A stretch of 64,000 nt of DNA from a virus. Lineage: Duplodnaviria; Caudoviricetes. Under the pieces are notes generated by a model that was given only the letters and a program-made list of their open reading frames with translations, was not told the DNA's origin and searched no databases. The stretch covers positions 9,700 to 73,699 of the IMG/VR virus record IMGVR_UViG_3300015610_000633, one strand, 5' to 3'. The first letter of the stretch is position 1; every line of letters begins with the position of its first letter. Below are positions 3,758-64,000 of the stretch, piece by piece. A program made the translations under genes and the position numbers.

Positions 3758-5029
3758 TCAAAACGGGAAGTCATCACCATCGGCAAGCGTGGTGTTAGGT
3801 TCATCATTGCGCACTGTAGGCAACTGCGCTTGATGTGATTGTGCCTTCATTTCACTGCGCTTGCGTATCGGTTGCGGTGGTGGGGGTGGTGGTGGCGCGG
3901 CTTGCTCGTATACATACCCGCAATGCGGGCACACAGCAGCGGTTTCTGGCATCGCTTGCCCGCATGAGTCACACGCTACCAGTTCAACCGATTGCGCTTG
4001 TTGTGGTGGCTTCTGCGCCGGTTTGGCTGGCACGTCTACCCGGTTAGACGTTTGTTGTTCACCACCGAACTCGTCAACGGCTTTCTTGTTGAAGGTAGGT
4101 TTTTCAGCCTTGACCTTGAAGATACGATCAAGATCAAACATCGCTTGCACTTGCTTCGGCATGTACGCTTCAACGTATGAACGAAGGTGAGCGACATTAT
4201 ACGGCGTTACCTCGTCACGATCGTCAGGTGGTTCAGAAAAGATCAACTCTTTGATATCGTCACGCAATGGAACCACACCCGAGCCAATGGGGATCGCGTC
4301 GTATTTTTCCATTGGCATCTTGTCTTTGTAATACTTCCAACGAAACGCATAAGGCGTGACTAGTGGGTTAGCCAATGCAGCGCCGAAGCTTTCACGGGCG
4401 TGATGAATGGCCCCCTTGACCTTATCACCGAGAAGTGATGTTTCGACCGCCAGTTGAACACCATCAGCCGGTTTAGCGTCGTTCACCACTGCGAACACGT
4501 AGAACAGTTTTGCGTTGCTGCTTTCTTGCCATGCTCGCGACATCAACAACCCGTGTGCACTTGCAGCGGTTTGAATGAAGTCAGGGATCTTGTTGCCTTG
4601 TAGAAGCCCACAAATGCCCGCTGCTGTTAGATTAGTTGTTGTGCCCGCGCCGTCGGTGACTGACCACACAGTAGTCATCGGGTGCAAACGTCGACTCATT
4701 ACAGCCTGATAGATCTCTTCAAGCAATACACCGAAAGGGTCGTTCGGTGGTACTTCGCGCTGACCCGCTTGATTGCGTGCATACATTGATTTATGCACGG
4801 TTTCGGGATCATGAGTCACAAAGTATTTCGTCCAAACTTCAGTCTTTTCAACTTTGGTTTTGTCGGTGTACGTAAACGGGATCGGGAGCTTGTAACGATA
4901 GATCGGTTTCGGTGGGTATTTAGTATGCAGCCAAACAGTGATTGAGCCATCTTTCGTCCACCCACGAAGCACCTTAGAGTGTTTCGCTTTACCCGTGTCA
5001 TGATTCAAGAAGTCATTGATGTCGGACAT
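3758..5029 (-). CDS. Putative single-stranded DNA-binding protein with zinc ribbon
   Basis: Probable start MSDINDF at 5029; CDSC..CPHC ribbon; acidic tail ending DGDDFPF as in SSBs; lies in the recombination module. Confidence 0.6.
   Translation of the reverse strand: MSDINDFLNHDTGKAKHSKVLRGWTKDGSITVWLHTKYPPKPIYRYKLPIPFTYTDKTKVEKTEVWTKYFVTHDPETVHKSMYARNQAGQREVPPNDPFGVLLEEIYQAVMSRRLHPMTTVWSVTDGAGTTTNLTAAGICGLLQGNKIPDFIQTAASAHGLLMSRAWQESSNAKLFYVFAVVNDAKPADGVQLAVETSLLGDKVKGAIHHARESFGAALANPLVTPYAFRWKYYKDKMPMEKYDAIPIGSGVVPLRDDIKELIFSEPPDDRDEVTPYNVAHLRSYVEAYMPKQVQAMFDLDRIFKVKAEKPTFNKKAVDEFGGEQQTSNRVDVPAKPAQKPPQQAQSVELVACDSCGQAMPETAAVCPHCGYVYEQAAPPPPPPPQPIRKRSEMKAQSHQAQLPTVRNDEPNTTLADGDDFPF
4032..4051. 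repeat. 20-bp quasi-palindrome, copy 1 (in-frame within CDS)
   Basis: ACGTCTACCCGGTTAGACGT. Confidence 0.95.
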
Positions 5030-5904: not shown

Positions 5905-8503
5905 GGTTCACTCCGTTCAATATTTCGTCAATCGTTAGCTTCAATGCAGGTGTAACGGCTACCGTGATCGGTAGATCCATCACAACCAACGCGCTCTTCA
6001 ACTTGCATTCGAGTACAACCGGCCTTGAACCGGGATGACTCTTCAACGCCTCACGTATTCTACCCATCACTTTGGTGTGATGTTCTTCAAGCTGCAATAC
6101 GAATGGTTTATTCTTTGAGCTTTGCGGTGGTGCCAATAGGACACCCGAAAGATCTATTGTCGCAGGTCTATTACACGATGTGATTTCGGGAAACATCGAC
6201 ACCTGACCTTGTTGCTCCAATGACACCCGTTTTGATTCACCCCTGGTTTTTTTCGGCCTGACCTTTTTATATTTATCAAGATCTACTTCGTGATTAGGGA
6301 ATATCGCCGCTAGTAGCCTATAGGTCGGCGGATATACTAGCGACTCCCATAGGTAGAACCGATCGCATTCACCCACCCAATCATCAGCGGGTATTACTTT
6401 CATGGGTGATGTTGACGCATCGGTAACAATGTATTGCACTTTGGTACCTTTGCCGATTTGCTCACCGCGTTCGAGCAATAGTTTTGCAATACGAATATGT
6501 GGCAATGATTCACTTGGATATTCATTCAATGGTTTTGATATTCCCTTTGACACCTTCACTTCATCAACGGGCAACTGTTCATTCAATACCCGATATGCGC
6601 AACGCTCAACCAACTTCAAATACATAGTCAGGTCATCACACTTACCGCAGAACAGTTTGATTACATCTTCTTGAAGTCTACGTGCCATCAATAGGGTATC
6701 ACCGCGCTTATACTCAAGCCCTTTCACTTCGGGTTTTGAATCAATGGTTGCGGCCTTGCCCTTATAATGTAGGTATGTGCCAACATATCGCTTTGCGGCT
6801 GTAAACACTAGCCAATCAAACTGTTTTTCATATGCCAGTTTCACATGGTTTCGAGTACACCCGCACTCTTTCAATATTCGTGGATAAAATGTTTCATTGC
6901 ACCATCGTGTGAAATCCTCGAACTCGCCCTTGGTGCACCCTGTCAAAAATACTGAGTCAGTGTCACCATATACCGCGCGCCACCCACGTTTCACTGCTTC
7001 TTCGATTGTCTTCTTGATCAACCATTGCCCGTTCTGTGTTACCGATTCGGCTATTTGACGATCGTAATATCGGCTAAACGTTGACCCTACCACACCATAA
7101 AAACTATTTGCCGCTACCTTATAGGCTGTAGATCTTCGGTCCGCGTCATACCATTCGGGTGTACCAGGCGCGGCATTAGATTTTCGTTCATTCCATTCTT
7201 TGCGAAGTCTAATCAGTTCACTTAGAGCCGTTGGCAATATTGCCCCTTCGATATTATCAAACCTCACACCTGTACTCGGTGACTTGCAGTATGATTGCCC
7301 GTTCAATACTTCTTTGGTTTCAGGGCTCATATTCCACGTCAAAATAATAGACGGGTACAGGCTAGCGAAGTCGCACACATGCACATTTTTGAGAATGCCC
7401 GCCTTCACATCGGGATGCATGACATATGCGCCAGCATATGGATCGTCATCTTCTTTTTTATTATCATCATCAAATAGCTTAGTCGGAAAGTGAAGGCCAC
7501 GCTGTGCACCTAGTTTCAACATATAACCATCGAGTTGTTTAGTAGGATTCAAAAACCAAGTATCGCAAAACCCGTGACACACTTCGCATAGTGTCTGAAA
7601 TAGTTTGATGTAGCCTGTTTTTCGTTCAAGGCGTGCCAACAATAGAGTGTCTTTTTTATTATACCGCAACAATCGAGCGCGCTCTTCACCGCCCTTTGAC
7701 CATGCCTCAAATGTCTTCTTTGAATCAAACTCGTCTTTAGCTTCACCGAGTATTGCTTGTGCAATATCATTCAACTTGAACGATTGTTTTTCTTCACCGC
7801 TCTCGCTAGCGGTATTCATACGCCTGAACAATACAAGTTGATCAAGGTACAACCATCGCCTGAACTTCACTTGAAGCCCTACAATGTTCGCGCGTTCCTG
7901 CAACATAGGGAAGTCAAAGCTTTGCGCATTCCAACCCACTAGTTGATCATATTTTTCGGCGGCCTTCCAAAATGCATCAAGTAGCTTTTTTTCAGCTTCA
8001 TCATTGTCATATTCAAGCATGCCAGTTTCTACCACCGATTCATCTTCATTGATCAAGGTCCAACACAATATTCGACATTCGATTTTTCGATCGAATGAAA
8101 AGCGTGCATCGGTTTCAATGTCTACATACCCGCGTGAAGGGGTTGCAATAGGTACTTCATGTTCACTCATATATCGTCTAAGTGCACTAACATCACCTTC
8201 AAATGTAGGGATACCCCTTTGCATAAATGGCCCCCCACCCTGCACCGCTGCTTTTCGATCGTTATTAGTACGCCAATCAATGCGTGTAAATCTACCTTGA
8301 TCGATTATTCTTCGAATAGGCATACCCGGCCCACATGCCCGAAATAGTGCCGATCGTGTACCGGGGTCAACGCGTTCGGTTTCGACAAATGCAGTATATG
8401 GTGCTTCTACCGATCGCTTGCGCAACGAACCATCTTCTGAACGGTAGAGAAAAACCAACAACCCATTGTCGTAATCTTCGAACGCGTTGACAAACCCGGT
8501 CAT
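5888..8503 (-). CDS. polB: Family B DNA polymerase with 3'-5' exonuclease
   Basis: DIET, GWNAQSFDFP, YAGAYV, DFASLYPSII, YKVAANSFYG, YGDTDSVF, KRY and KGLEYKRGD motifs. Confidence 0.97.
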   Translation of the reverse strand: MTGFVNAFEDYDNGLLVFLYRSEDGSLRKRSVEAPYTAFVETERVDPGTRSALFRACGPGMPIRRIIDQGRFTRIDWRTNNDRKAAVQGGGPFMQRGIPTFEGDVSALRRYMSEHEVPIATPSRGYVDIETDARFSFDRKIECRILCWTLINEDESVVETGMLEYDNDEAEKKLLDAFWKAAEKYDQLVGWNAQSFDFPMLQERANIVGLQVKFRRWLYLDQLVLFRRMNTASESGEEKQSFKLNDIAQAILGEAKDEFDSKKTFEAWSKGGEERARLLRYNKKDTLLLARLERKTGYIKLFQTLCEVCHGFCDTWFLNPTKQLDGYMLKLGAQRGLHFPTKLFDDDNKKEDDDPYAGAYVMHPDVKAGILKNVHVCDFASLYPSIILTWNMSPETKEVLNGQSYCKSPSTGVRFDNIEGAILPTALSELIRLRKEWNERKSNAAPGTPEWYDADRRSTAYKVAANSFYGVVGSTFSRYYDRQIAESVTQNGQWLIKKTIEEAVKRGWRAVYGDTDSVFLTGCTKGEFEDFTRWCNETFYPRILKECGCTRNHVKLAYEKQFDWLVFTAAKRYVGTYLHYKGKAATIDSKPEVKGLEYKRGDTLLMARRLQEDVIKLFCGKCDDLTMYLKLVERCAYRVLNEQLPVDEVKVSKGISKPLNEYPSESLPHIRIAKLLLERGEQIGKGTKVQYIVTDASTSPMKVIPADDWVGECDRFYLWESLVYPPTYRLLAAIFPNHEVDLDKYKKVRPKKTRGESKRVSLEQQGQVSMFPEITSCNRPATIDLSGVLLAPPQSSKNKPFVLQLEEHHTKVMGRIREALKSHPGSRPVVLECKLKSALVVMDLPITVAVTPALKLTIDEILNGVNHAKTK

Positions 8504-12817: not shown

Positions 12818-13177
12818 TCAACCGCTGGTTTTCACGTCTACCCGGTTAGACGTATCACCGAAACGGCGGTGATACTCTTCGACCGAAAGAAACCCGTGTT
12901 GTTTCACCGGGTGATCTTTACGGTGCACTTCGGCGTAACGTTGTCTGCACTTGGCTAGGTTCTTCAGTGTATGCGGGTGAGTTCCGAACTCGAAACAACC
13001 GATCCCGAACTTCTTACGCTCTTTGAACCACTTGTTGCGACATACCCCCAACGCTTTAGCCTGCTGTCTACCGTTCGGATATTTCTCGATGAACTCGTTC
13101 ATCGCTTGCTTGTCTTGCAACAACTTCGCTAGCAACTCGCATTCATCAAGCGGCGTATGTTTTCGCTTAGTAGCCAT
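12818..13177 (-). CDS. Hypothetical small basic protein, possible HTH regulator
   Basis: GRQQAKALGVCRNKWFKERKKFGI resembles a helix-turn-helix; C-terminus encoded through a palindrome copy. Confidence 0.55.
   Translation of the reverse strand: MATKRKHTPLDECELLAKLLQDKQAMNEFIEKYPNGRQQAKALGVCRNKWFKERKKFGIGCFEFGTHPHTLKNLAKCRQRYAEVHRKDHPVKQHGFLSVEEYHRRFGDTSNRVDVKTSG
12834..12853. repeat. Quasi-palindrome, copy 3
   Basis: ACGTCTACCCGGTTAGACGT. Confidence 0.95.
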
Positions 13178-16496: not shown

Positions 16497-16501
16497 GAAC
16501 C

Positions 16502-16511
16502 ATTATGCAGC
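16502..16511 (-). promoter_or_regulatory. GCTGCATAAT motif followed by palindrome copy 4
   Basis: GCTGCATAATGGTTCACGTCTACCCGG. Confidence 0.6.
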
Positions 16512-16512
16512 G

Positions 16513-21714: not shown

Positions 21715-21719
21715 CAACC

Positions 21720-21729
21720 ATTATGCAGC
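21720..21729 (-). promoter_or_regulatory. GCTGCATAAT motif followed by palindrome copy 5
   Basis: GCTGCATAATGGTTGACGTCTACCCGG. Confidence 0.6.
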
Positions 21730-21744
21730 GCAGTCCGCAACTTT

Positions 21745-23251: not shown

Positions 23252-23271
23252 ACGTCTACCCGGTTAGACGT
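23252..23271. repeat. Quasi-palindrome, copy 6 (putative origin region)
   Basis: ACGTCTACCCGGTTAGACGT. Confidence 0.95.
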
Positions 23272-23570
23272 CGGGGCGGGGGGTTGGGGGGTTGGGGCAC
23301 CCTGCTTCGGCGTTCCGCCGTTGTTGGCCATGGTTGATTCACGAAAACATCGGGGTTCGTTTTTCCCTTCTCCCCCTGCACCCCCTTATCCCTTTTCAAG
23401 ATTTCACTTCGTGAAATCTTAAGTTTTTGATCTCTTTGATCTTTTTTGATCTTCGGATCTATATGGATCTTAGATCTTATTATTAAGATCAAAAGACTAA
23501 CCGCGCGCATACATACACGCGTGCGCGTACACATACGCGAGAGAAACACAGCGACATATTTTTGAACTAC

Positions 23571-23580
23571 GCCGCATAAT
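23571..23580 (+). promoter_or_regulatory. GCCGCATAAT motif upstream of the only plus-strand gene
   Basis: Motif orientation flips with gene orientation. Confidence 0.6.
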
Positions 23581-24261
23581 ATGAATATGTTCGCTCACGA
23601 GATCTCACCCGACTTCAACTCAAAACGGTTCACAATCAAAGACTACTTGACGGTTACGGCTGACAAAAAGCTAGGATATGCCCTAATCTTGGGCAGCAAA
23701 GATCCTAACACTGAGCTAGGCCGGTTTGAAAAGATAGCCGTTGATCAACGTCGCCCCCCTGCAATGGAGTTGCAGCCATGGCGAGACAAAAGCAATCGTT
23801 CACGGTGGTCAATACGAATGGCTCAATATAGGCAATATGCGCTTGAGAGCGGAACCGTGAAGGTTGGGTTGATAGCTCCTGATCTCAAGTGGGTAGACTC
23901 AGATAATGATCAACTTCTTGTGCGAATCAACACACACATGAAGGGCAACCCTTCGGAACTGGCAAGGGAAGGAACGATCGACATTCTAACCCCTTCACTT
24001 GCCATTAGAGTCGCCGATCCCGCATGGCATCAGTTCGGTGCCCATAAAGCACAAGATTGGCTTCTACGTCTCAAGCCAGGGGCCATAGTTTCTATTCATT
24101 GCGATCACGTCGGTATTAGACCTGTGTACGTGGTCTATATCGATGATGAACTAAAGTTGAACCCCCACATGTTGCCCGAACCATCACCACCCCCTTCACG
24201 CATTCATTGGTTAGATACTAACCCGATCAATGCCACATGCACCACCTTCGCAGGTTTCTAG
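23581..24261 (+). CDS. Hypothetical protein, only plus-strand gene (would end at TTA 24211-24213 if TTA is a stop)
   Basis: Long ORF with no opposing gene over most of its length; GCCGCATAAT motif immediately upstream. Confidence 0.7.
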   Translation: MNMFAHEISPDFNSKRFTIKDYLTVTADKKLGYALILGSKDPNTELGRFEKIAVDQRRPPAMELQPWRDKSNRSRWSIRMAQYRQYALESGTVKVGLIAPDLKWVDSDNDQLLVRINTHMKGNPSELAREGTIDILTPSLAIRVADPAWHQFGAHKAQDWLLRLKPGAIVSIHCDHVGIRPVYVVYIDDELKLNPHMLPEPSPPPSRIHWLDTNPINATCTTFAGF

Positions 24262-32177: not shown

Positions 32178-32197
32178 ACGTCTAACCGGGTAGACGT
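32178..32197. repeat. Quasi-palindrome, copy 8
   Basis: ACGTCTAACCGGGTAGACGT. Confidence 0.95.
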
Positions 32198-32517: not shown

Positions 32518-32858
32518 GATTGGGGTTTATCACGAAACACGAACGAGTCAGTTTGCGAGCGTAACCCGCGAACTAGGTAGTGTATGAACTGCGCTATAAA
32601 GCCCCCAATCATACCGAAGACAGAATACTTACCCACTGCTACTAGTGCGCGTTTAGAGTCTTTCTTAGCGCCTTCGCTCGCTCGTGTTGCGGCTAGTATG
32701 TTAGCCTCCATTGTAGTCAACTTGTTCATCAATGTCGTTTGATACTCTTGATCTTTCTGTTTATGGGCTACCAGTGCAGCCCCGAACTTTTCAACCGAAG
32801 AGCAAACAGCATCAACTTTCGTTGACAATGTTTCAACCTGTTTAGTGAGTTCGTTCAT
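32505..32858 (-). CDS. Coiled-coil protein with C-terminal TM helix (holin/XhlA-like; would end VRG at TTA 32562-32564)
   Basis: Coiled coil followed by YSVFGMIGGFIAQFIHYLV. Confidence 0.55.
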   Translation of the reverse strand: MNELTKQVETLSTKVDAVCSSVEKFGAALVAHKQKDQEYQTTLMNKLTTMEANILAATRASEGAKKDSKRALVAVGKYSVFGMIGGFIAQFIHYLVRGLRSQTDSFVFRDKPQSWNN

Positions 32859-33839: not shown

Positions 33840-33859
33840 ACGTCTAACCGGGTAGACGT
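33840..33859. repeat. Quasi-palindrome, copy 9
   Basis: ACGTCTAACCGGGTAGACGT. Confidence 0.95.
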
Positions 33860-37247: not shown

Positions 37248-38278
37248 AAACCCACCGTGAACCCTACACACCCGAGACCGGGTGTAGTTGCGCCAGTTGC
37301 GGGATCTGGACTCTTAGGACCGAGCAACGCGGCGTTGATTGCAGACAACACCGCTTGACTCAACACACCAACGGGCGGGGTTGAAGCGGTGATCGCTGCT
37401 AGTATCAACGGCAAGTTAGCGGGGTCAACAAGCATTGCACCAAGCATTGTACCCGTTAGAGGCGTAGGCCCCAAAAGATTGAGCGCAACGCCAAGGGCGT
37501 TCAACACCTGCGACACGAAAAGAACCGTTGATTGTGCTGTTGTTATAGTGCCGAACGGTGGGTTGCCCGAAGTGGAGATCGAAAAGGTACCCGGTGTTGC
37601 GGCTTGTGCTTTGGTAGAACTCCAATCAAAGATCGCGCTACCGTCAACGGACATACGGATCAGCTTGTTGGTGTAATCAAGTTGAAGCAGCATTTCACCA
37701 TCGCCCGATTGCATTCCTATGAAGTCGGCACCCAAGTGAAAGAAGCCCCCTGATGAATCGCTAAACGTCATATTGCCGTTTGCTTCAATCCCGAAGTACG
37801 TACCCGTTACGGCACTTCGTACAAGGTAGCTTGAAGCGGTTTCGATTACGTAGGGAACCCGCATCCTACGAAACGCAAAGTTGTTACCACTCACTTCGTT
37901 ACCTGCGACCATGGTAGGGAATGCATCGATCTCTTGATTCATTCTACCCACGATCACGGCGTTACCCGGTGAACCTTCGGGCATCACAACAAGAACTTCA
38001 TCCCCTTCAAGAAAGGGGAACCATTCACCTTCCCCATTGCCTGCGACTGTACCCGCTACACGCGCACGAACGGGGATACCCGCGGGTTGAAGAGTGACAT
38101 TCACCAACGGACCATACTCGGGTGAAAATACGACGGCTTTACCGCCATCTTCTTCTGATTGATCCTTATCCACTAGGGCCATTGAAACCCATGCTCGCGT
38201 ATCAATACCCGGCCCCTTCAATAGCTCAACAAGTTCATTGACGGGGAATCGCCCGAATGTTCGAGACATAAGATCCAT
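37103..38278 (-). CDS. Baseplate spike/hub protein, gpV/gp5 OB-fold type (would end at TTA 37247-37249)
   Basis: VRARVAG..AGNGEG.W.P..EGDEVLV....G.PGNAVIVG motif; beta-repeat C-terminal region. Confidence 0.8.
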   Translation of the reverse strand: MDLMSRTFGRFPVNELVELLKGPGIDTRAWVSMALVDKDQSEEDGGKAVVFSPEYGPLVNVTLQPAGIPVRARVAGTVAGNGEGEWFPFLEGDEVLVVMPEGSPGNAVIVGRMNQEIDAFPTMVAGNEVSGNNFAFRRMRVPYVIETASSYLVRSAVTGTYFGIEANGNMTFSDSSGGFFHLGADFIGMQSGDGEMLLQLDYTNKLIRMSVDGSAIFDWSSTKAQAATPGTFSISTSGNPPFGTITTAQSTVLFVSQVLNALGVALNLLGPTPLTGTMLGAMLVDPANLPLILAAITASTPPVGVLSQAVLSAINAALLGPKSPDPATGATTPGLGCVGFTVGLWQVHHHHPTHHRYNNKINRWLARGSLLVRPLLACVGLHSLRSGCFST

Positions 38279-40065
38279 AACTGTTTACCCCCTGCGTTTG
38301 TTTGGGTGGTTGTCTTCTTCGGGGTTCCCGGTGGTGGTTTCACAGGTTCATCAGGCCCCAATGATTTATCAGCCCTGACTTCAAGGTAGTTTCTCCCTTG
38401 TATTTCGATCTCTACACCCATGTCACAATCCCATCTAATGCCAACTTGTGCAGTTCTGAACGTGGTTTGAAAACCAACGTTTGAATACACTTCGGCGTAA
38501 GCTTTGGCGATTGCACCATCATACCCCAATGTTTCGAGGTATTCCCTAGCGCGTTGTTGAAGCAACAATATGTTTTCGATCGAAGTCATCGAGTTGTATT
38601 CAACGTTTTCACGGTTGACTTGTAGATCGAAAGTATCACCCGGTTGCATGTCGAGTATATCGGGATCAAGGTTGCCACCCCCGAAACTAGCCATGTTTTT
38701 CGTTTTCACCGAAACCGTGAACTCACCGCGGTTTAGTTGTTCATAAACCGATTGAGCGATGATTCTCAACTGCAACGGATCTTTGATGGGAAGGTTGACC
38801 CGATGAACGATCCATTTTTGATCGGCCACATCACCCGGCAATACAAGAACCCCAAACACACGATCACCCGGCAAGGGGAACCTAGCAACCATCACCTTTT
38901 TGCGTTGGGGGTTGTAACACCGAACTTCAACATTCTGCATTGCTGCAAATGTGAACTGCCTTGCAATCTTAGCCGATTCGATATTTCGACCATATATCAA
39001 GTGGCGATAAGTCAACAGCTTACCGCTTTGCACTTGTCTCGGTACATAGGGATCGTCATCCCGTACTGTGAAATCAGAACTAGTGATCGTGCGCACCCGT
39101 TGAATGATTATTCTATCGCCCAACATACGGCACATGTGCCCGATAGAGCCGCACACATCAGTCAAATAATCCCAAACCGAAAGATCTGAACCACCCCCCG
39201 GTGGTGGTCCTAGTTGCGGCCTGTAGGAAGTACCCGCGAGTGTTTCCGCAAGCTTAGGGGGAGTCGCGTTTTGTGGCACATATTCGACCGTTAGACCTGC
39301 GCACCGAGGGAAGTTGCAAAGGTATAGCGCTATGGCTCGATCAATCGGTTCTTTGGCGTTTATGAACAACTGCGGGGGAGCTTTTTGATCGATCAACAAT
39401 ACCGTGTTGTCGCGACAATCAAGACGCACAAGCGGTTCACCTTCTTCACTTATTTCAGTTTCCCATTTATCAACCCAACCTTCAAAACGAAGGTTACTCC
39501 GTTGTTGCCCCCAACTGTCGATATACGTATCGGGTATTACATTCAACAACTCAGTACCCGCTTGATTGTACTGACCCGCGCTTACCGCTCGCGTTTCGCC
39601 ATTCATGCCGTGCCTGTATTCATCTTCAGTCAAACACCCAAGATAATATTGAACGCGACAAGCTCTAATCACACGAGGGTCAAAGGGAAGATCGATCCAT
39701 TTGAAAGTCAGGTTCAAAACATCGGCTTGACGTATGCCGTTGATACCTAGCGCCGCTTCTTTAGGAATGATCGCCCCTAGTGGTTGGGTAAGATCATCGC
39801 GGCTATTTTTTCGATTCAAAGATGATTGCGGTGATTGTACTTCTTTCGGCTTCAAAAAATAACGTGTTGTACCCGGTGGTGCAGTCTCATCGGGTGTAGG
39901 GTATAGCGGTGCGATCCTTCCCTTAGCGCCCCTTAGAAGTTGTGGGGGAACCTTCGGCGCCAGTGCCATCACAAGATTGGTTTTTGACTTCATTTCATCG
40001 AAACGAAGAATCAACCGTACTTTAGCGGCCGGGTAGTAAGTTTGTTCGGGGAACTCTATTTCCAC
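38218..40065 (-). CDS. Baseplate hub (gpD/late-control-like) protein (would end at TTA 38278-38280)
   Basis: Position after the LysM-like gene; VRLDCRDNT and YGRNIESAKIARQF features. Confidence 0.7.
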   Translation of the reverse strand: MEIEFPEQTYYPAAKVRLILRFDEMKSKTNLVMALAPKVPPQLLRGAKGRIAPLYPTPDETAPPGTTRYFLKPKEVQSPQSSLNRKNSRDDLTQPLGAIIPKEAALGINGIRQADVLNLTFKWIDLPFDPRVIRACRVQYYLGCLTEDEYRHGMNGETRAVSAGQYNQAGTELLNVIPDTYIDSWGQQRSNLRFEGWVDKWETEISEEGEPLVRLDCRDNTVLLIDQKAPPQLFINAKEPIDRAIALYLCNFPRCAGLTVEYVPQNATPPKLAETLAGTSYRPQLGPPPGGGSDLSVWDYLTDVCGSIGHMCRMLGDRIIIQRVRTITSSDFTVRDDDPYVPRQVQSGKLLTYRHLIYGRNIESAKIARQFTFAAMQNVEVRCYNPQRKKVMVARFPLPGDRVFGVLVLPGDVADQKWIVHRVNLPIKDPLQLRIIAQSVYEQLNRGEFTVSVKTKNMASFGGGNLDPDILDMQPGDTFDLQVNRENVEYNSMTSIENILLLQQRAREYLETLGYDGAIAKAYAEVYSNVGFQTTFRTAQVGIRWDCDMGVEIEIQGRNYLEVRADKSLGPDEPVKPPPGTPKKTTTQTNAGGKQLWILCLEHSGDSPSMNLLSY

Positions 40066-40085: not shown

Positions 40086-41333
40086 TCAACCTGCAAGGGT
40101 AGGTATAACCAACACTTTACCAACGGGCAGTGCGGTCATAGTCCACGGCAAACTATTAGATTTCAGGATATCGATCGCGTGGTCTGCAGTGTTGTAGAAC
40201 TGCAACGAAACTGAAGAAGCAGTGTCACCCGCCCGAACAATGTACAATGATTCAACCGTTGAAGGTGTGGTGTTCTTGGTACCTTGTGAAGTGGCTTGAC
40301 CACCACTTGAACCTGAACGGCTATACTGCTTCAAAAACTGCAACATGACACTGTTGACTTGTTTAGTAACACCATTGACAGAATCATGACTCTTACCGAT
40401 CAAAGTGACGTTACGAAGTATGTCAGCCGCATTGGTTGTTTTGCTTTGTTTTTCTGCAGGTATAGCCGACACGGTTTGTGAATATTGTTTGGCTATTGTT
40501 GACATATTATCCATGGCTTGCGTGACAGTGTTTTCAACCTGACCCGGTATTGATGCAACCTTGTTCACAAGGTCAGTGAAGTTTTGAAACTGCTTAGCCA
40601 TTTTTTGAAGATCTCGCGTTACTCCCTTCACAAGATTGTTAGGATAGTCCGCAAGATTCGACAGTTGATCAAACGTTAGATTAGGAACCCCTTGTCCCTT
40701 CTTCTTTTTTTGACCATCGGTGTTGATGACAATATCAGTATAAAAGTTGTCTACTAGTTGGTTCATATCAAGCACCAACTGAGAAGCTTCGGAAGCAGGA
40801 TCACCCGTTCGCAACGCAACAACTTTCTGTTGTGTAACGCCGCGACTCATCCAAGCCCATTCAATGCGCCACCCTATATCCGACTCGGTATCGTGGTTGA
40901 AAATAATCGAAGCAGCTCGCCCTTCACGAACCAATGAAAAGAACGCATCGATCTGCGCCGAACTAACCCATGTCACGCGCAAGCGCGCGCCTTGCCTGCA
41001 TATTTGTTCCATGAGTTCTTTCAAAACCCATGGTGTGGTGATCTTGGTTTCGTTACCCCCTTCGCTATACAATGCGGGTGATTTACCCATCATCGTTCTA
41101 CGCCAAAAACCCTCAAACGTAGTTGGTGGTTCAATAGGGCCAAGAACCTGTTGTGTGGCTTCACTAGCGTTGCCACTATACCATGTAGTTGTGATCCTGT
41201 TCTGTGTGCCCCATGAAACACCCCTATGTGGCAAAGTAGGACCGCGCAGCGTGATCTTACGTTCAAGCCCCGACACTTCTTCGATCGTGATTTCACTAGT
41301 GAAGCTTGAAGGCTGAACAGTTTTGATCGCCAT
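40086..41333 (-). CDS. Tail tube initiator / LysM-containing baseplate protein
   Basis: C-terminal YIVRAGDTASSVSLQFY...PVGKVLVIP LysM-like motif; ATG 41333 lies just after a palindrome; the ORF track fuses it with the upstream acidic region. Confidence 0.65.
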   Translation of the reverse strand: MAIKTVQPSSFTSEITIEEVSGLERKITLRGPTLPHRGVSWGTQNRITTTWYSGNASEATQQVLGPIEPPTTFEGFWRRTMMGKSPALYSEGGNETKITTPWVLKELMEQICRQGARLRVTWVSSAQIDAFFSLVREGRAASIIFNHDTESDIGWRIEWAWMSRGVTQQKVVALRTGDPASEASQLVLDMNQLVDNFYTDIVINTDGQKKKKGQGVPNLTFDQLSNLADYPNNLVKGVTRDLQKMAKQFQNFTDLVNKVASIPGQVENTVTQAMDNMSTIAKQYSQTVSAIPAEKQSKTTNAADILRNVTLIGKSHDSVNGVTKQVNSVMLQFLKQYSRSGSSGGQATSQGTKNTTPSTVESLYIVRAGDTASSVSLQFYNTADHAIDILKSNSLPWTMTALPVGKVLVIPTLAG

Positions 41334-41343
41334 GGTGTGCTTG

Positions 41344-41363
41344 ACGTCTAACCGGGTAGACGT
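41344..41363. repeat. Quasi-palindrome, copy 10
   Basis: ACGTCTAACCGGGTAGACGT. Confidence 0.95.
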
Positions 41364-41798
41364 GGTGAATAAATCAGCTTCGGGATTGAGCAGCGCTTGT
41401 GCCCAAACTGACAAGGGTACAAGTCGTTCAGAAAGATCTTCAAGTGTCTTGTCGGCTGCGTCTTTCGGATCTTCGGGAACGTCTGCACCTTCGGCGGCTT
41501 CTTGCGCGGCTGCAACGGCGGCTTCGGCGGCGGCTTGTGCTTCGGGATCTTCCGGGTCGGCTTCAGCTGCTTCAACTGCACCTTCGGCAGTTTCGATCTG
41601 GTCTTCTACTTGATCGATTTCGCTACCTTCGGCTTCACCATCAGCGGGTTCTTCATCACCCGATTCTTCATCATCCTCGGGTGGTGGCAAATCATCGCCT
41701 TCTTCGTTGTCTTCTGTTGGATCAAGAGACTCAAGATCCTCCTCTTCATCATCTTTGCCAAGTATGTTTTTGAGCGCCGAAACGATCTTGTTTGCCAT
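41349..41798 (-). CDS. Highly acidic hypothetical protein (separate gene only if TTA 41349-41351 terminates)
   Basis: MANKIVS start with GAAAGGTG upstream; E/D/A-rich; first TTA falls inside the palindrome. Confidence 0.5.
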
Positions 41799-41814
41799 GT
41801 TATCACCTTTCTTA

Positions 41815-43899
41815 TCACGGCCCGAACACACCACCAACTTTAGCATTGCGTCGATTTTCAGCGGCGTTGATGATGTCGCGTTGAAAGATCATGGCAATAC
41901 GATCGGGATCTTGATCCCTGAAATCTTGCTTCAAGTTGAAGGTGTTGTTGTTGAACTCCACTTTGGGATTCTGCTTCATTGCGGGTGCTTCTGCCAAACC
42001 CATGAGCTTCTTTTTGAAGTCTTCGGCACCATCACCGACCATTGAAGCCAATAGCTCGAACCCGCCTTGAACCTCGGTACCGGCCTTCAAGAACATTTGT
42101 TGAAGCGCTACGTTGCCTTCAAACATCTTGGCTATGGTCTGCATTTGCACCTTGTTACCGTTCACAACCGCGGTTGAATACGCATCAATGAACTGTTCAA
42201 GTTGCTTTACATCTTCCATATACGCTTCGTTGCTGTCTTGCTTCACGCCTTCTTTGGCCATGTCATGACGTGCGTTCATCGTGTCGCGCATCATGTCAGC
42301 GGCGTCTTGTGCTTTATTGATTACGGCTTGGTTTTTCTTACCTTCTTCGTATAGCCGATCCATTGCATCGGCCATTGATTTCAGTTCTTTCTGTGTGTAA
42401 CCAGCCGATTCGCCGAACTCGAACACCCGCTTACGCAACATGTCGTAGTCTTTGGCGGTAGCTTCACGCGTACCATTCGCCCAACCCGCGGCTGCATCCA
42501 TGGTAGCCAGCAAGTTGTCATTAGCTTCAACATGCCACGGTAGGACCGCCCCGAACTCTTTCATGTATTGCGTCGCTTGATACACAGCGGCACCGACACC
42601 CACAACAGCAGCCCCGAACGCTGCAAGGCCCGTAGCAGTGGCACCCAGCGCCCCCGCTGCGCCTGCACCCATGCTACCCTTGGCAATGTGTGCCGCTCCG
42701 ACAGCCGACGCTGCTGTAGCGGCTTGAGTGCCCGCACTGGTCAACGTTCCTACGGCACCCGTAACCGCGGGTATTGCCGCTTTGGCACCAAACGCAACAG
42801 CTATCTCTTCTTTATGCGCCAAGATAAACTTGAACACCTTCTCAGCCATTTCGAAACCTTGCGAGATCGCATGTTTGATTTCGTCGGCATGAGTCACCAC
42901 ATAATCGAAGCCCTTTTCTATAGCTTTCGCGGCTTCGCTAATATATTTCGTCACCTTCTCACTGAACATTCTAACGAAGCTCTCAATCACTCCCTTGTTC
43001 GCTTCAAGCTTCTCTTTGAACCTATCGAGAGCAGGCACAACCGCGGCTATGATTGGCTTACCGAAGCCTTCGAGAAACCGATCTTTCATCGTGCCTAGTT
43101 GCTGCATAACGGTTTGAAAGGTTGCGGGCACACCAACCATTTGCTTTGCCATCTTACCGATCGCGACTTGTGCAAACGACATAGCCGATGCATCGGTTAG
43201 AAGATTCAACTGTTGTGCAACCTGCTTCGCGTTCCCTTTGAGGGTACCCGTAGCGGCGATCATTTGAACGATCGGATCTGTAGCCTTCGCACCTTGCGCG
43301 CTGAAGTTGTTGAACGATTGTGCAAGCGCTTCGGGACCACCTGCGACCGCTCTACCCGCAGTGCCTATATTTCGCATAAGCTTAGCGATGTCTTCATCGC
43401 TTCGCTTGAAGGCTTTCTCCCATTGGTTCAGGGGCATATTGATCGATTGCCCCGAAGCCGTAATGAACGAACGCGAAGTGTTGAATGTATTTGCTAGGGT
43501 TGTGTAAAGCTCCGTTGCTGTATTCTTTGCAATACCGGTGCGCGCAGCAAACCGATCCATTTCAGAGTTGAAGACGTTTGCTTTCTTCGCGAGGGTATCC
43601 CAATCGGTGCCAGCCTTCGCGGTTAGCGACATTAGGCCGGTCATATGTTTTTGAGTATTTTCAAGGTCGAGCGCTTTGGTAAACGCTTCTTTACCCATTT
43701 CAAAAAGTTTACCCGTTGACATGGCCAACTGAAAACCAAGCGCGGTTGCGGCTGCTTCTTTGAAGAAACCCACAACCCCCGCTTGTGCCTTATCAGCAGC
43801 GTCGGAAAGGTTACCGAAGCCTGACTTGATCTTATCCATTGCGGCCTTGGATTGATCGTCAAGCTTGAAGACTGCTGAAACTTCAGTTTTTGCGGCCAT
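41815..43899 (-). CDS. Tape measure protein
   Basis: Ala/Gly-rich helical 694 aa between the chaperones and baseplate genes. Confidence 0.85.
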   Translation of the reverse strand: MAAKTEVSAVFKLDDQSKAAMDKIKSGFGNLSDAADKAQAGVVGFFKEAAATALGFQLAMSTGKLFEMGKEAFTKALDLENTQKHMTGLMSLTAKAGTDWDTLAKKANVFNSEMDRFAARTGIAKNTATELYTTLANTFNTSRSFITASGQSINMPLNQWEKAFKRSDEDIAKLMRNIGTAGRAVAGGPEALAQSFNNFSAQGAKATDPIVQMIAATGTLKGNAKQVAQQLNLLTDASAMSFAQVAIGKMAKQMVGVPATFQTVMQQLGTMKDRFLEGFGKPIIAAVVPALDRFKEKLEANKGVIESFVRMFSEKVTKYISEAAKAIEKGFDYVVTHADEIKHAISQGFEMAEKVFKFILAHKEEIAVAFGAKAAIPAVTGAVGTLTSAGTQAATAASAVGAAHIAKGSMGAGAAGALGATATGLAAFGAAVVGVGAAVYQATQYMKEFGAVLPWHVEANDNLLATMDAAAGWANGTREATAKDYDMLRKRVFEFGESAGYTQKELKSMADAMDRLYEEGKKNQAVINKAQDAADMMRDTMNARHDMAKEGVKQDSNEAYMEDVKQLEQFIDAYSTAVVNGNKVQMQTIAKMFEGNVALQQMFLKAGTEVQGGFELLASMVGDGAEDFKKKLMGLAEAPAMKQNPKVEFNNNTFNLKQDFRDQDPDRIAMIFQRDIINAAENRRNAKVGGVFGP

Positions 43900-50959: not shown

Positions 50960-50979
50960 ACGTCTAACCGGGTAAACGT
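50960..50979. repeat. Quasi-palindrome, copy 12 (one mismatch)
   Basis: ACGTCTAACCGGGTAAACGT. Confidence 0.9.
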
Positions 50980-51263: not shown

Positions 51264-51277
51264 GTTGTGTTTACTCC

Positions 51278-51303
51278 AAAAAGAAAGGCCCCCGAAGGGC
51301 CTT
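51278..51303 (-). terminator. Rho-independent terminator after MCP
   Basis: AAGGCCC-TTCG-GGGGCCTT followed by TCTTTTTT. Confidence 0.85.
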
Positions 51304-56686: not shown

Positions 56687-58517
56687 GGTGCTCTAACCCT
56701 CCCGGTGGTCCCGGTGGATCTTTGATGAGATCGGGTTCGTCTTCTTCAACTACGTTTTCGGGTAGTTCTGTCGGTGGTGCAGGTGGTTTCTTGTCTGCCC
56801 CATCGGGTAGCTCGTCACGATGGGATACAACCCCGCCCGCATCACCGGGGAACATTGCGCCAAGTTGATTTTGTTCATCGATCGCTTGTTGCTTCAATGC
56901 CCTGAACTCTTCATCAGGGTTCAAGTCATATGCTTGTGCGACTTGCGCTACTGCTGTGCGATGACTTAGCACTGGTTTTTGACCCGCAGCGGCTTGTGCT
57001 GATGTTGCGATCGCTTGTTGATCAAGTGGGGTTGCTTTGAAGTATGACCCCCACTTGAACCCGATCTTGCCACCATTGCCCGGTTCTCGTTCGATGGGTA
57101 CGAACTCTTCTTCACCAGTGAGTTCACCCATTTCATCGGTTAGTTGTATCTTTTCAAACTTTGGGGGAAGCATCAAAACTTCTTCACCTTCAACCGGGTT
57201 ACCCTCATCATCAAGAACAATCACCGTTTGTTTCCACCTGCGTTTTGCACAAGCAAACATGTTCGTGATCATGCGTGTCATACCCCGCCCGTATTGTTGA
57301 CGGAGTATGTCGCACTTCGCAGTCATGGCCGAATAAATCACCTTCAACGCAACGCTTGAAGTGCCTTGCGCTGCAAGCAAATCGGGATCGGGTAGAACGC
57401 ATTCAACAACTTCGAGAACCATCTTTCGAAGTCGATCTATTAGATCCATACCAGCGGTGATCGATGCACCGCCAAGTTCCAAGTATTTAGCGTCTTCATT
57501 AGGGTCAAGAATCAACGCATTGTCTGAACCCTTACGAATGCCCCGCCGTGCAACCATCTCAGCGTCCACGTTGAGCACAAGCGTCGGATCAAGGTTCAAC
57601 ACACCACCACGCGCAACAACCGACGTCAACAGGTCAAGCGTGTCAAAGTTATCATACTGCCCGTCATAATCTGCTTCACCATCGACTTCATCGCTAGGCA
57701 AGTTTTGAATCCATTCGAAGTGACATATACCATCGCCATGTGCGATCGATCGTTCTTGATCGATAACCCACACAGGTTCGCTCACTTGATTATTCGTGAC
57801 AGGGATCTCTTGATAAATGAGATCGAAATCGGGTAGCCAATCACGGCGAAACCAAAACCATTGTTTTTCTACGCGCCGAAGTTGCGGGTTCCATTCGTCG
57901 CGACTGAACCGATACATTTCAATCACGTGTTCGGGGATCAACTCATCACGATCGGCCCACTTGTTGATAAAAATATGTTTGGCGTTGTGCACAGTAAAGC
58001 GAGGCTTACCCTGATGAAAGCACCACGAAATACCAACCGAACCGGTAGAACCACCGAGATCGCGAGCGCGTACCATCTTCGGCATCAACCCGCCTTCATC
58101 GATCAAACATTGAATGAAGTCTTGAGTGTTTTTATCACCGTCAACCGTAACAGTGGGTGAGCGGTGTTCGCTGAACAATAGGTTAGTAAACGCGCGTACA
58201 ATCTTCTTCGCTAGTCGATATGGTGCCGAAGGTCGGCGTTGTCGCAATGGCACCATATGCGATATTTGATCGGTAACTAGCAACGGGTTACTAACCGACC
58301 CTTGCGATACTAGACGCCCATCAAAATCAAAACTTTTATGATTGTGTTGAGTACAAGAAAAATATGACTCTTTGCGGTCAAGCTCCATGAACCGTTCAGA
58401 GTTCACGATCAAGTTGATATTAGGACCGCTACCCATGCCAGCGATGCCCCCATACTGACCGGGATCACCGAGTATCCCTAGCGCTTGACCGGGTGGTAGA
58501 ACGTTCGCGTATGCCAT
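56652..58517 (-). CDS. Portal protein (would end PPGPPGG at TTA 56694-56696)
   Basis: 621 aa upstream of the gpF-like gene; portal-like architecture (SGVALK-like TSSVALKVIY, acidic tail). Confidence 0.85.
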   Translation of the reverse strand: MAYANVLPPGQALGILGDPGQYGGIAGMGSGPNINLIVNSERFMELDRKESYFSCTQHNHKSFDFDGRLVSQGSVSNPLLVTDQISHMVPLRQRRPSAPYRLAKKIVRAFTNLLFSEHRSPTVTVDGDKNTQDFIQCLIDEGGLMPKMVRARDLGGSTGSVGISWCFHQGKPRFTVHNAKHIFINKWADRDELIPEHVIEMYRFSRDEWNPQLRRVEKQWFWFRRDWLPDFDLIYQEIPVTNNQVSEPVWVIDQERSIAHGDGICHFEWIQNLPSDEVDGEADYDGQYDNFDTLDLLTSVVARGGVLNLDPTLVLNVDAEMVARRGIRKGSDNALILDPNEDAKYLELGGASITAGMDLIDRLRKMVLEVVECVLPDPDLLAAQGTSSVALKVIYSAMTAKCDILRQQYGRGMTRMITNMFACAKRRWKQTVIVLDDEGNPVEGEEVLMLPPKFEKIQLTDEMGELTGEEEFVPIEREPGNGGKIGFKWGSYFKATPLDQQAIATSAQAAAGQKPVLSHRTAVAQVAQAYDLNPDEEFRALKQQAIDEQNQLGAMFPGDAGGVVSHRDELPDGADKKPPAPPTELPENVVEEDEPDLIKDPPGPPGGLEHHGHRQEGLRTK

Positions 58518-61392: not shown

Positions 61393-61412
61393 ACGTCTAC
61401 CCGGTTAGACGT
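61393..61412. repeat. Quasi-palindrome, copy 14
   Basis: ACGTCTACCCGGTTAGACGT. Confidence 0.95.
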
Positions 61413-63001
61413 CAAACCGCTTGAACGCTTGAACCGGTGCCTTGCTTCTGCACCGTGTTACTAAACGGCGAGCCTGTAAGTTCAGCCCATGTCTTGCACG
61501 AAGCCGAAGCAGGTACAGCAAGTTCACCACCCGCTAGTGGTGGTACATGGCTTGTTGCGCCGTCAATGATGAAATCTTGTGTTGAACCTGCGATGTATTG
61601 CCCCGCGGCATCAATAACAAGCTTTGAACCCGTGTTGATTGCAAACACGCTCTCAACACCTGCACCCGAGAACACACCCGCGGAACAATCAACCATGTGC
61701 ATCTTGTTCGCAGTGTATAGCGAACCGGTGATCGCCTTGCCCCAAATGTTATTTGTAAGGGTTGTGTAACCGCCTGCAAACAACAGGTTACCCGTCGTAA
61801 CCATGCCGTCAATGTTCCAAGTTGCACCGATTGAATCAACGCCTTGCAACACTGAACTAACAATATCCACCTTCACAGGTGCGTACACGTTCAGTTGCTC
61901 AACGTAACAGTGTTGAAAAGAAGGGCTACCTTCAACAACTTCGGCTTCGGTGAAGTAACAACAAACGAAGCGCGCACCTTTGCCAATATGTAGCGCGCTC
62001 ACGAATGCAAAGTACTTGCACACAACTTGCCCTTCACCGTGCATGTGAAGCGTAACCCCCGCACTATCAGTCAACCCCTTTTCAAGTACCGATGTTGTAG
62101 CGGTTGGGGTAGCAACCGGGGTAACAGCAGCGGGATCAAACCACTCTTTGACGAACAGATCATTGGTTGCTTGTGAAGCCCCCCACGTCATCGTGTTAGC
62201 GTCTTTCGCAAACAACGAACCGACGAACGAACTCCAATCAATCGCTTTAGTGATCTTGAACATGGTGTTAGTTGCCGCAACACCATCAGCGATCGTTACT
62301 GCGCTCTTCGTGGATACAGTTCGCAATGAGCCAAGAATGTTCAACACGGCGCCAGCATACGGAGCATAAACCGAACCAACGATCTCTTCAGTCCACTCGT
62401 TAGAACCATCGGGATCGGGCACAAGATTGATCGTTGTACCATCTTTGAAGTGCCCGCCCGTTCGCGTTAGCCATTCTTTGAACGTGGCCAACGGTGAGCT
62501 AACCGAACCGGTGCCTTCATCATCACCGAGTGCTGAAATATACCAAGTGGTTTGATCCAACGCGACAAGAGAACAACCCGGTACGGTTTCAAACATACCC
62601 GTTGAATCGGTATCGGCAAAGCACACATAACCATCGACAGTTGCAGTGCTTGCGAGTACCCATGTGAAATATCGATCAAGGGTTTTCACATAACATAGTT
62701 GATAATCTTTCAACGTCTTCGCACCGGCTTTAGCTAGTGCGACCGTATCAAACACCACAACTTCGTTTTTCAACCCTGCAAGCTCATAACCTCGAAGTTC
62801 TGCAGAAGGTGCGTTACCTTGTGAAGCCCTCGCTTGCGCCACTTGAATCTCTTTCGGGATCGTTCCTGTGTATGATGAAAGTTCACAACCGTCATTGACC
62901 AGTTGTGTGATGTTGAAGTGATCGCTTGAGATTACTTTACCCGCTCGCCACGTTGAGCCAAGGTAAACGTAATCGCTTAGAAGCAGGTACTTGGTTGCCA
63001 T
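61412..63001 (-). CDS. Tailspike/fibre-like virion protein with beta-helix-type body
   Basis: N-terminal VFDTVALAK...YVKTLDRYFTW segment resembles tailspike N-terminal domains; GDDEGTGSVSSPLATF motif; repetitive beta strands. Confidence 0.6.
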   Translation of the reverse strand: MATKYLLLSDYVYLGSTWRAGKVISSDHFNITQLVNDGCELSSYTGTIPKEIQVAQARASQGNAPSAELRGYELAGLKNEVVVFDTVALAKAGAKTLKDYQLCYVKTLDRYFTWVLASTATVDGYVCFADTDSTGMFETVPGCSLVALDQTTWYISALGDDEGTGSVSSPLATFKEWLTRTGGHFKDGTTINLVPDPDGSNEWTEEIVGSVYAPYAGAVLNILGSLRTVSTKSAVTIADGVAATNTMFKITKAIDWSSFVGSLFAKDANTMTWGASQATNDLFVKEWFDPAAVTPVATPTATTSVLEKGLTDSAGVTLHMHGEGQVVCKYFAFVSALHIGKGARFVCCYFTEAEVVEGSPSFQHCYVEQLNVYAPVKVDIVSSVLQGVDSIGATWNIDGMVTTGNLLFAGGYTTLTNNIWGKAITGSLYTANKMHMVDCSAGVFSGAGVESVFAINTGSKLVIDAAGQYIAGSTQDFIIDGATSHVPPLAGGELAVPASASCKTWAELTGSPFSNTVQKQGTGSSVQAV

Positions 63002-63016
63002 TCGACAACGCTAGCA

Positions 63017-63190
63017 CTAGCGACGAACACAACCAAAAACACGCGTGTATAACCAGCCTTCGGCACCCATGCGTGAAGCGATGTCTTCGTAACGGTTTGT
63101 TCGCATTGGTTTAGCTTCGCAGAACAACACGCGTTCACGTTTAGCGATCAATCGTTTCAAGGTTTCGTAATAGTCGATTGTTGAAAACAT
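63017..63190 (-). CDS. Possible small ORF (57 aa; TTA at 63050-63052)
   Basis: MFSTIDYYETLKRLIAKRERV...; fills the intergenic gap; below the ORF track threshold. Confidence 0.35.
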   Translation of the reverse strand: MFSTIDYYETLKRLIAKRERVLFCEAKPMRTNRYEDIASRMGAEGWLYTRVFGCVRR

Positions 63191-63218
63191 CGGGGGATCT
63201 TGCTCAACCCCCCCCCCT

Positions 63219-63238
63219 ACGTCTACCCGGTTAGACGT
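63219..63238. repeat. Quasi-palindrome, copy 15
   Basis: ACGTCTACCCGGTTAGACGT. Confidence 0.95.
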
Positions 63239-63906
63239 AACGCCGCAACGGGTACAGTTGTCTCACCGGTAGCGGTAACAAGCTTAGCGCCAGCAAATGC
63301 GGTAACGATCGAAGCCCATAGCCCTTTGCGGGCACCAACTGGCACAACCCAAACTTTGGTTGCACCGTCAAACCAAGCACGGCAGTTGTTAGCGCGTACG
63401 GCTTGATTGAATGCAGGGCTATATGGCGCCTTCACCTTGTAGCTATCACCTTCGCGGGTGACGCTTAGAACGGGTATTGCAGGGGCATTCACAACACCCA
63501 TGTTGGCAAGGCGCAACGCCTTCCCGGCTTGCTTTTCGATCTTGTTCGCAAGCTTCACGAAGCCGAGCATACGAAGCGCCACAACGAAGGGGCCTCGCGA
63601 TCCCTTGTACGAAGTCGCGGCATGGTGAACGAGCACGTTCGCGATCTTCTTCACATCGATCGATTGCTCGGCTTCAAGGTCGTTCAACGCCTTGATGTTC
63701 ATCGGATGAACAGCAGACCAAAAAGCAACCCAATCGATCACGAGTGTTTCTGCGATGAAGCCGTAACCATATGTTTGACGGCAATCGGGGCCGATGCCCA
63801 ACTCAACGCTAACCGCGTCGGTTAGCTTGCGACCGCAACACACACAGCGTGTTGCTACGAGTTCACATGCGGGTGAGGCTTCGTGATTTGATTGGGTGGT
63901 GGTCAT
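63223..63906 (-). CDS. DUF6011-like Zn-finger protein with C-terminal HARP-like segment (would end at TTA 63238-63240)
   Basis: CVCCGRKLTDAVSVELGIGPDC; KVKAPYSPAF...FDGATKVWVVP. Confidence 0.75.
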   Translation of the reverse strand: MTTTQSNHEASPACELVATRCVCCGRKLTDAVSVELGIGPDCRQTYGYGFIAETLVIDWVAFWSAVHPMNIKALNDLEAEQSIDVKKIANVLVHHAATSYKGSRGPFVVALRMLGFVKLANKIEKQAGKALRLANMGVVNAPAIPVLSVTREGDSYKVKAPYSPAFNQAVRANNCRAWFDGATKVWVVPVGARKGLWASIVTAFAGAKLVTATGETTVPVAALRLTG

Positions 63907-63948
63907 TGTTCTTGTCTCTTTCTTTCTCGGTCCGCGTTGGATGTCCAA

Positions 63949-63990
63949 GTTATGCGTTCTTTTTGACCTACCGTCAAGATCTTTTTTCAA
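63949..63990 (-). promoter_or_regulatory. Sigma70-like promoter, twin of the 12758-12800 promoter
   Basis: AAAAAAGATC-TTGACG(63977-63972)-17 nt-CATAAC(63954-63949). Confidence 0.75.
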
Positions 63991-64000
63991 CGGTAGGTCG

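Follow-up and report, generated by a model that had tools for sequence, protein, structure and literature searches.

The DUF6011-like gene on the minus strand of this phage genome (63241..63909, 223 codons) most likely ends in ...PVAA, immediately before a TTA triplet at 63238..63240. We consider it probable that the gene stops at this TTA and that UUA, instead of encoding leucine, terminates translation in the phage lineage, serving as a fourth stop beside TGA, TAA and TAG. Comparison of related genomes supports TTA as a gene-ending codon throughout the phage clade, because it is absent from gene bodies, occupies positions where orthologs carry conventional stops and is followed by sequence that appears free of coding constraint. 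The conclusion on the DUF6011-like C-terminus (...TTVPVAA) draws on this genome-wide and clade-wide behaviour of TTA, together with the register that the gene end shares with conventional stops next to a conserved palindrome. Such a reading would fix the true C-terminus of the protein and would make the palindrome at this locus intergenic, not coding.

The window analysed here is a 64-kb stretch of a 73.7-kb virus record, and sister assemblies indicate a full genome of ~87 kb. Nearly all genes lie on the minus strand and the GC content is 49%. The sister assemblies (L001-L007) are at least 98.6% identical and are therefore uninformative on divergence. Comparisons were made with two more distant relatives, L010 at ~79% protein identity and L020 at ~55% identity (50.7% GC), and with the contigs of the proteins P0032 and P0033, for which the comparison rests on protein ends and gene coordinates. 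Scans of IMG/VR with the DUF6011 protein and the portal as queries returned no relatives, and a distant DNA search of the GenBank phages likewise returned none. The neighbours of ThyX in a protein atlas, consulted for a clue to the host, belong to mixed phyla.

The DUF6011-like gene starts at the ATG at 63909, its MTTTQ N-terminus agreeing with the database protein P0001. Residues 20-44 of the product match the Pfam profile PF19474 (E 3.7e-11; 42.8 bits against a gathering cut-off of 26.6), which is present in 29 of 29 database homologs. On the gene strand the end reads ...GTT GCG GCG TTA CGT CTA ACC GGG TAG; positions 63240-63219 of the minus strand correspond to TTA-CGTCTAACCGGGTAGACGT, and the A of the TTA (63238) is base 1 of the palindrome. 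The TTA had been noticed from the sequence as unique after the probable start, and it proves to be the sole TTA of the whole 255-codon ORF. Both the TTA and the palindrome are identical in seven of seven independent assemblies, in which only a neighbouring G-run varies (9 or 10), so a sequencing error is not involved. The 3′ arm of the palindrome provides an in-frame TAG on the minus strand (63223..63225), the standard-code stop or a backup stop, five codons past the TTA. A harmless LRLTG extension is thus conceivable, and an extension of five residues would probably be harmless; its residues RLTG are the palindrome translated in the register of this gene.

The C-termini of homologs were compared, as the preliminary description had suggested. 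Among the 19 homologs aligned, none has an LRLTG-like C-terminus, several finish in AA (...GASAA, ...IKAAA, ...ARAA), and the ends fall 0-8 residues past the last conserved Gly block. If read through to the TAG, the protein would carry the longest tail of this alignment. The P0001 cluster contains a second protein, and its C-terminus is the same. The nearest diverged ortholog (L008, 54% identity) stops with a TGA three residues earlier than the TTA, and this TGA is followed, 16 nt further on, by a flipped copy of the palindrome with one mismatch. As aligned, the two stops at this locus match approximately and do not constitute an exact exchange of TTA for a stop. The homolog C-termini fit an end at ...PVAA and, for this gene alone, are not decisive.

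Two other readings of the TTA have to be weighed. In the first, which we regard as unlikely, UUA is unassigned or very slowly read, and stalling is followed by release through rescue factors or drop-off; in a variant of the same reading, UUA is a conditional stop read through by a scarce tRNA-Leu(UAA), as in the bldA system of Streptomyces, yielding mainly ...VAA and sometimes ...VAALRLTG. The in-frame TAG five codons later would suit such a system as a backup. In the second, which seems quite improbable, the standard code applies, TTA encodes leucine and the protein ends as ...VAALRLTG at the TAG of the palindrome. The TTA would then have arisen from a TGA by stop-loss (G to T), tolerated since the palindrome supplies a stop, and its register would follow from the frequency with which TG precedes the element. 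The shortness of the extension and the differences of up to eight residues between homolog C-termini are compatible with this account.

Across the 58 long minus-strand ORFs, TTA occurs in frame at only 21 of 18,954 codons, versus 208 and 172 occurrences in the other two frames. The same ORFs freely use TTG (596), CTT (409), CTA (255) and ATA (203). All 21 in-frame TTAs fall within the final codons of an ORF, ahead of the true start codon or in zones where ORFs overlap or are fused; pre-start examples include 51320, in the stretch after the major head protein gene, and others within palindromes in gene leaders. TTG and CTA, from each of which a single synonymous transition leads to TTA, together account for 851 codons, none of which has become an interior TTA, an absence that leaves the genome-wide pattern unexplained if TTA is leucine. 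The sole plus-strand gene (23581..24261) contains a single TTA (24211-24213), 15 codons from its end, and ending the gene there shrinks a convergent overlap from 51 nt to 3 nt. The called genes of the remaining ~14 kb of the genome contain no in-frame TTA. A stalled or conditional UUA would leave the same signatures, being likewise missing from gene bodies and found at gene ends. The Myxococcus phage Mx1 (55% GC), run as a control with the same script, contains 41 in-frame TTAs spread evenly along its genes, and distant relatives of 66-70% GC have a few TTAs, which are spread through gene interiors.

The stretch directly after the major head protein gene, which holds the intergenic TTA 51320, also contains a rho-independent terminator, GGCCC-TTCG-GGGGCC followed by a T-run (51275-51300). 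Over the whole record, the tetranucleotides AATT (6 observed, 189 expected) and TTAA (3 observed, 110 expected) are nearly absent, as if the phage were evading two host restriction systems; the other 4-bp palindromes occur about as often as expected, with GATC slightly enriched. Avoidance of TTAA was rejected as the cause of the loss of in-frame TTA because the avoidance, real as it is, is not frame-specific.

When TTA is taken as a stop, 13 genes of the 73.7-kb record are TTA-ended, among them the portal gene (TTA at 56696) and baseplate genes (TTA at 38280, 37249, 31286 and 30177), and about one gene in six of the phage ends in this way. The tails from the TTA to the next standard stop measure 0-61 codons, as expected if the next stop is reached by chance, with one further tail of 427 codons in frame with the next gene. 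Under the standard code, overlaps onto the next gene would reach 215 nt, and that code would have to accommodate 13 genes in which TTA immediately precedes such an unconserved tail. The 163 tail codons gave no in-frame codon-usage signal, the margin being partly a pseudocount penalty on three TTAs in the tails. Fusion in frame with the next gene concerns one of the 13 TTA-ended genes and is not enriched, which led to the rejection of programmed readthrough fusion and also speaks against the stalled or conditional reading. Both the replication and the structural module contain genes that end in TTA, hence there is no sign of the temporal switch that a conditional codon might serve.

At 32564, the TTA of the window aligns base for base with a TGA in L010 (...HYLVRG versus ...HYVFNR). 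At 37249, TTA again lies opposite a TGA and both proteins are 343 aa long, and at 30177 a TTATG in the window corresponds to TGATG in L010. Stop-start overlaps of the form TTATG at 38280 and 31286 are present in both the window and L010. For the gene at 38278..40065, the orthologs P0032 (78%) and P0033 (70%) stop at the position of the TTA (38280), with stop-start overlaps onto the next gene of 1 nt and 4 nt. L010 itself has only two in-frame TTAs in 4,254 codons, both at the gene ends just compared and none interior. Such TGAs at orthologous TTA positions are difficult to reconcile with TTA as leucine, and the free exchange of TTA and TGA between close relatives argues against a codon that is merely slowly or conditionally read.

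The sequence past the TTA shows coding constraint in the frame of the next gene only. Past the two conserved TTATG junctions, it differs from L010 by 13 and 20 substitutions, of which 10 and 14, respectively, are at third positions of the downstream gene's frame. Read in the downstream frame, the same stretches share 16/17 and 15/20 residues with L010, and read in the tail frame they share 8/18 and 6/21; in one of the tails, L010 meets a TGA two codons in. Hence the substitutions, too, count against the standard code, under which the tails would be coding.

A larger ORF illustrates the same behaviour. Under the standard code, 40086..41846 is a 586-aa ORF with two TTAs and an intragenic palindrome. 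Its C-terminal part has 149 listed homologs of 335-469 aa, nearly all stand-alone; these listed homologs cover query residues ~181-586, and most match from within their own first ~10 residues. In place of the 586-aa ORF, relatives carry separate genes of 151-160 aa and 415 aa. These stand-alone homologs and split genes indicate that the upstream, 158-aa gene ends at the minus-strand TTA at 41370..41372, 6 nt before the palindrome at 41344-41363; by this comparison the 586-aa ORF is two genes parted by a TTA. In the more distant L020 (1-16075), TTA closes 10 of 15 genes, five of them as TTATG, and none is interior. One 441-aa call in L020 consists of two genes joined in frame across a TTA. With TTA closing up to two thirds of the genes in L020, a stalled UUA would be costly if it entailed rescue or degradation tagging each time.

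The register of the DUF6011-like gene end had been proposed in the preliminary description as an internal control linking the stops and the palindrome, on the strength of four stops whose final A doubles as the first base of a palindrome (32197, 33859, 50979 and 61412). All four hold. The copy at 32178..32197 shares its first base with the A of the TGA of a 106-aa gene, a junction kept in L010, and the copy at 33840..33859 with that of the TAA of a 231-aa gene, the L010 ortholog of which has a TGA in the same register. The copy at 50960..50979, a variant with the arm ACGTTTA (one mismatch), overlaps the TGA of the upstream gene at the same -1 distance, and that at 61393..61412 shares its base with the TGA of a 529-aa gene, in the orientation and register of the 63219 copy. 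Two further -1 stops outside the window, those of the endolysin and cupin genes (genome positions 32 and 7080), bring the total to six, and the TTA at 63240-63238 is in the identical register.

Fourteen copies of the palindrome have a gene end at most 60 nt upstream, and in seven of these the distance is exactly -1, namely the six TGA or TAA stops and the DUF6011 TTA; the other seven are 4, 5, 6, 9, 18, 30 and 47 nt from the gene end. In the whole genome, 7 of 21 copies overlap a stop codon. Two of the -1 junctions are kept in L010 (~79%) with an identical 20-mer and at one of them TAA has become TGA, hence the register is maintained while the stop codon changes. Were TTA an ordinary codon, the chance of finding it in the -1 register would be ~0.5% by usage of NNA codons (21/4556), a further difficulty for the standard code, and ~6% by base composition. 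It is nonetheless worth noting, in favour of a by-product of sequence preference, that TG precedes 8 of 18 copies and that at three of them it does not belong to the terminal stop of the upstream gene. Taken alone, the register is modest evidence for a TTA stop. The proposed link stands as a register shared with six conventional stops and fails as a mechanistic one: the 16 kb of L020 contain no copy of the palindrome, and L020 has TTA stops without it, so TTA stops are not coupled to the palindrome. With UUA read as a stop, the end of the DUF6011-like gene would be pressed against a conserved 20-bp intercistronic palindrome with one base shared, as with the six conventional stops, and the shared base would mean that gene ends are packed closely up to an element serving as sequence-specific punctuation.

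The copy at 63219..63238 is a 20-bp near-palindrome with 7-bp arms and an asymmetric 6-nt centre, which reads ACCGGG on the gene strand (R orientation); it is locally extended by a flanking T and A. The general form is ACGTCTA-[ACCGGG or CCCGGT]-TAGACGT, with 15 copies in the window, 18 in the record and 21 in the ~87-kb genome; the search gave 17 two-strand matches corresponding to the 15 copies, and none in shuffled sequences. As RNA, the element is predicted to form a hairpin of about -7 kcal/mol, with 7 bp in the stem and 6 nt in the loop. Orientation is mixed, with 12 F copies (CCCGGT on the gene strand) versus 9 R copies. All 12 F copies are intergenic and in leaders; ten are followed at 8-26 nt by a start codon, often with an intervening GGAG. 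Six R copies are located inside ORFs and three at gene ends, and one adjoins a GATC-rich, origin-like region. The six intra-ORF copies share orientation and frame and encode TSNRVDV, this being the only stop-free frame of that orientation; coding through the palindrome is thus possible. Intra-ORF copies include 4032-4051 and 12834-12853 in the window, L015:2895-2914, and L001:5560-5579 and 8388-8407, and the copy at 12834-12853 runs through the last codons of the putative ORF 12818..13177.

No base of the 20, the asymmetric centre included, varies between copies or in L010, which argues for sequence-specific recognition by a protein, either on DNA or on the RNA hairpin. The element is probably a protein-recognised hairpin or operator, placed mostly in the 5′ leaders of downstream genes. 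A simple rho-independent terminator was considered and rejected, as only three of the seven stem pairs are G-C and a T-run follows directly only at 23252-23271; at 63219, the T-run belongs to a separate G/C hairpin past the palindrome. The nearest analogues are stoperators of the mycobacteriophage L5 type, asymmetric 13-mer repressor sites that all face the same way with respect to transcription and often overlap stop codons. Like stoperators, the palindrome is a short conserved repeat in short intergenic gaps, often over the upstream stop. Unlike them, it is a 20-bp near-palindrome found in both orientations (12 and 9), with six copies in ORFs.

The motif GCGCTGCATAATGGTT precedes three F copies (16497-16512, 21715-21730 and L001:4160-4176) and resembles an extended -10 promoter element, which would put the transcript start at the palindrome. 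The only plus-strand gene is adjoined by a GATC-rich, repeat-rich non-coding stretch (23272-23580), an origin-like or divergent control region. In the part of the genome outside the record, L016:13007-14688 contains two G+C-rich non-coding stretches (670 and 368 nt) by the amidoligase and GGACT-domain genes.

Termination at UUA would be carried out by the host machinery. The ~87-kb genome has no tRNA gene by aragorn and Rfam, a tRNA-Ala proposed by aragorn on the opposite strand of L016 having been rejected because Rfam finds no tRNA there, and the phage record encodes no RF-1 or PCRF domain. A phage with neither a tRNA nor a release factor of its own suggests that it is probably the host that reads TTA as a stop; the missing release factor is also what a stalled UUA would predict. 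The predominance of TGA among the stops (43 of 58) points to an RF2-type factor. The most likely route would be an RF2-type release factor with relaxed reading of the second base combined with loss of tRNA-Leu(UAA), as in organelles. We lean towards the view that, in a lineage of free-living bacteria hosting this phage clade, UUA lost its leucine meaning and became a stop by way of a modified RF2 and the disappearance of tRNA-Leu(UAA), and that the phages adopted the code.

The closest known cases are organellar. UUA has become a stop in labyrinthulean (Thraustochytrium) mitochondria (NCBI table 23), in the plastids of peDinoflagellates and in the mitochondria of Marsupiomonadales and Pseudoscourfieldia, where the change is tied to substitutions in a bacterial-type RF2 or RF1 (PMC12574857). 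As in these organelles, phage UUA is kept off gene bodies and is found where homologs have standard stops, alongside normal stops, and the RF2/RF1 mechanism is also open to a bacterial host. The present case differs in being a clade of tailed phages of ~50% GC, with a host that we infer to be bacterial, and not an organelle; UUG also remains the commonest leucine codon in the phage (596 in the window). Published sense-to-stop changes are limited to mitochondria and plastids (PMC12574857), and a literature search found no phage or bacterial case of UUA changing from sense to stop. The reassignment would, if true, be the first sense-to-stop change of the genetic code outside organelles and would imply an undescribed bacterial genetic code.

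Recoding is familiar in crAss-like and Lak phages, in which TAG or TGA is read as an amino acid. In both situations, phage genes are miscalled under table 11, with fused or overlapping ORFs. Here, however, the direction is from sense to stop, the phage encodes neither a suppressor tRNA nor a release factor, and the change extends to early and late genes alike. Codons that are poorly read are also known, as in the regulation by rare TTA through bldA in Streptomyces and the unassigned codons CGG in Mycoplasma capricolum and AGA/AUA in Micrococcus luteus. In these systems the codon is merely rare or absent, does not build up at gene ends, and occurs in genomes of extreme GC content. The phage resembles them in having one codon that is poorly or not read and purged from most genes, and departs from them in placing TTA at gene ends in lieu of stops, at 49% GC, with free use of CTA, ATA and AGA.

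TTA would otherwise be a common codon in a clade of ~50% GC, which for this reason is an unusually clean witness. Its 49-51% GC makes for a much more powerful test, by statistics and by comparison, than is possible in high-GC phages, in which TTA is rare anyway. If TTA is indeed a stop, standard gene callers would give false C-terminal tails, false overlaps and fused ORFs in this phage and its relatives.

The surroundings of the DUF6011-like gene present further features. Directly past the palindrome, a G-run/C-run hairpin followed by a T-run (63183..63213, minus strand) is terminator-like, its G-run being 9 or 10 long across assemblies. This terminator-like region (63183-63218) overlaps the ATG of a small minus-strand ORF (63017..63190), called as a 57-aa gene in sister assemblies; it has 57 codons under the standard code, and its own in-frame TTA (63052-63050) would shorten the product to 46 aa. 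In the sister assembly L004, 20 SNPs are bunched at the start of the 529-aa gene, over ~90 codons (62735-62998), and the rest of the region is nearly identical, making this a strain-variable segment. Upstream of the DUF6011-like gene (63930-64000), the promoter-like motif TTGACGGTAGGTCAAAAAGAACGCATAAC includes an inverted repeat, TTGAC..GTCAA, over the -35. The motif recurs in the same genome at L016:10870-10910 (131 nt, 85% identity) and in the 54% relative at L008:1-35 and 1005-1039.
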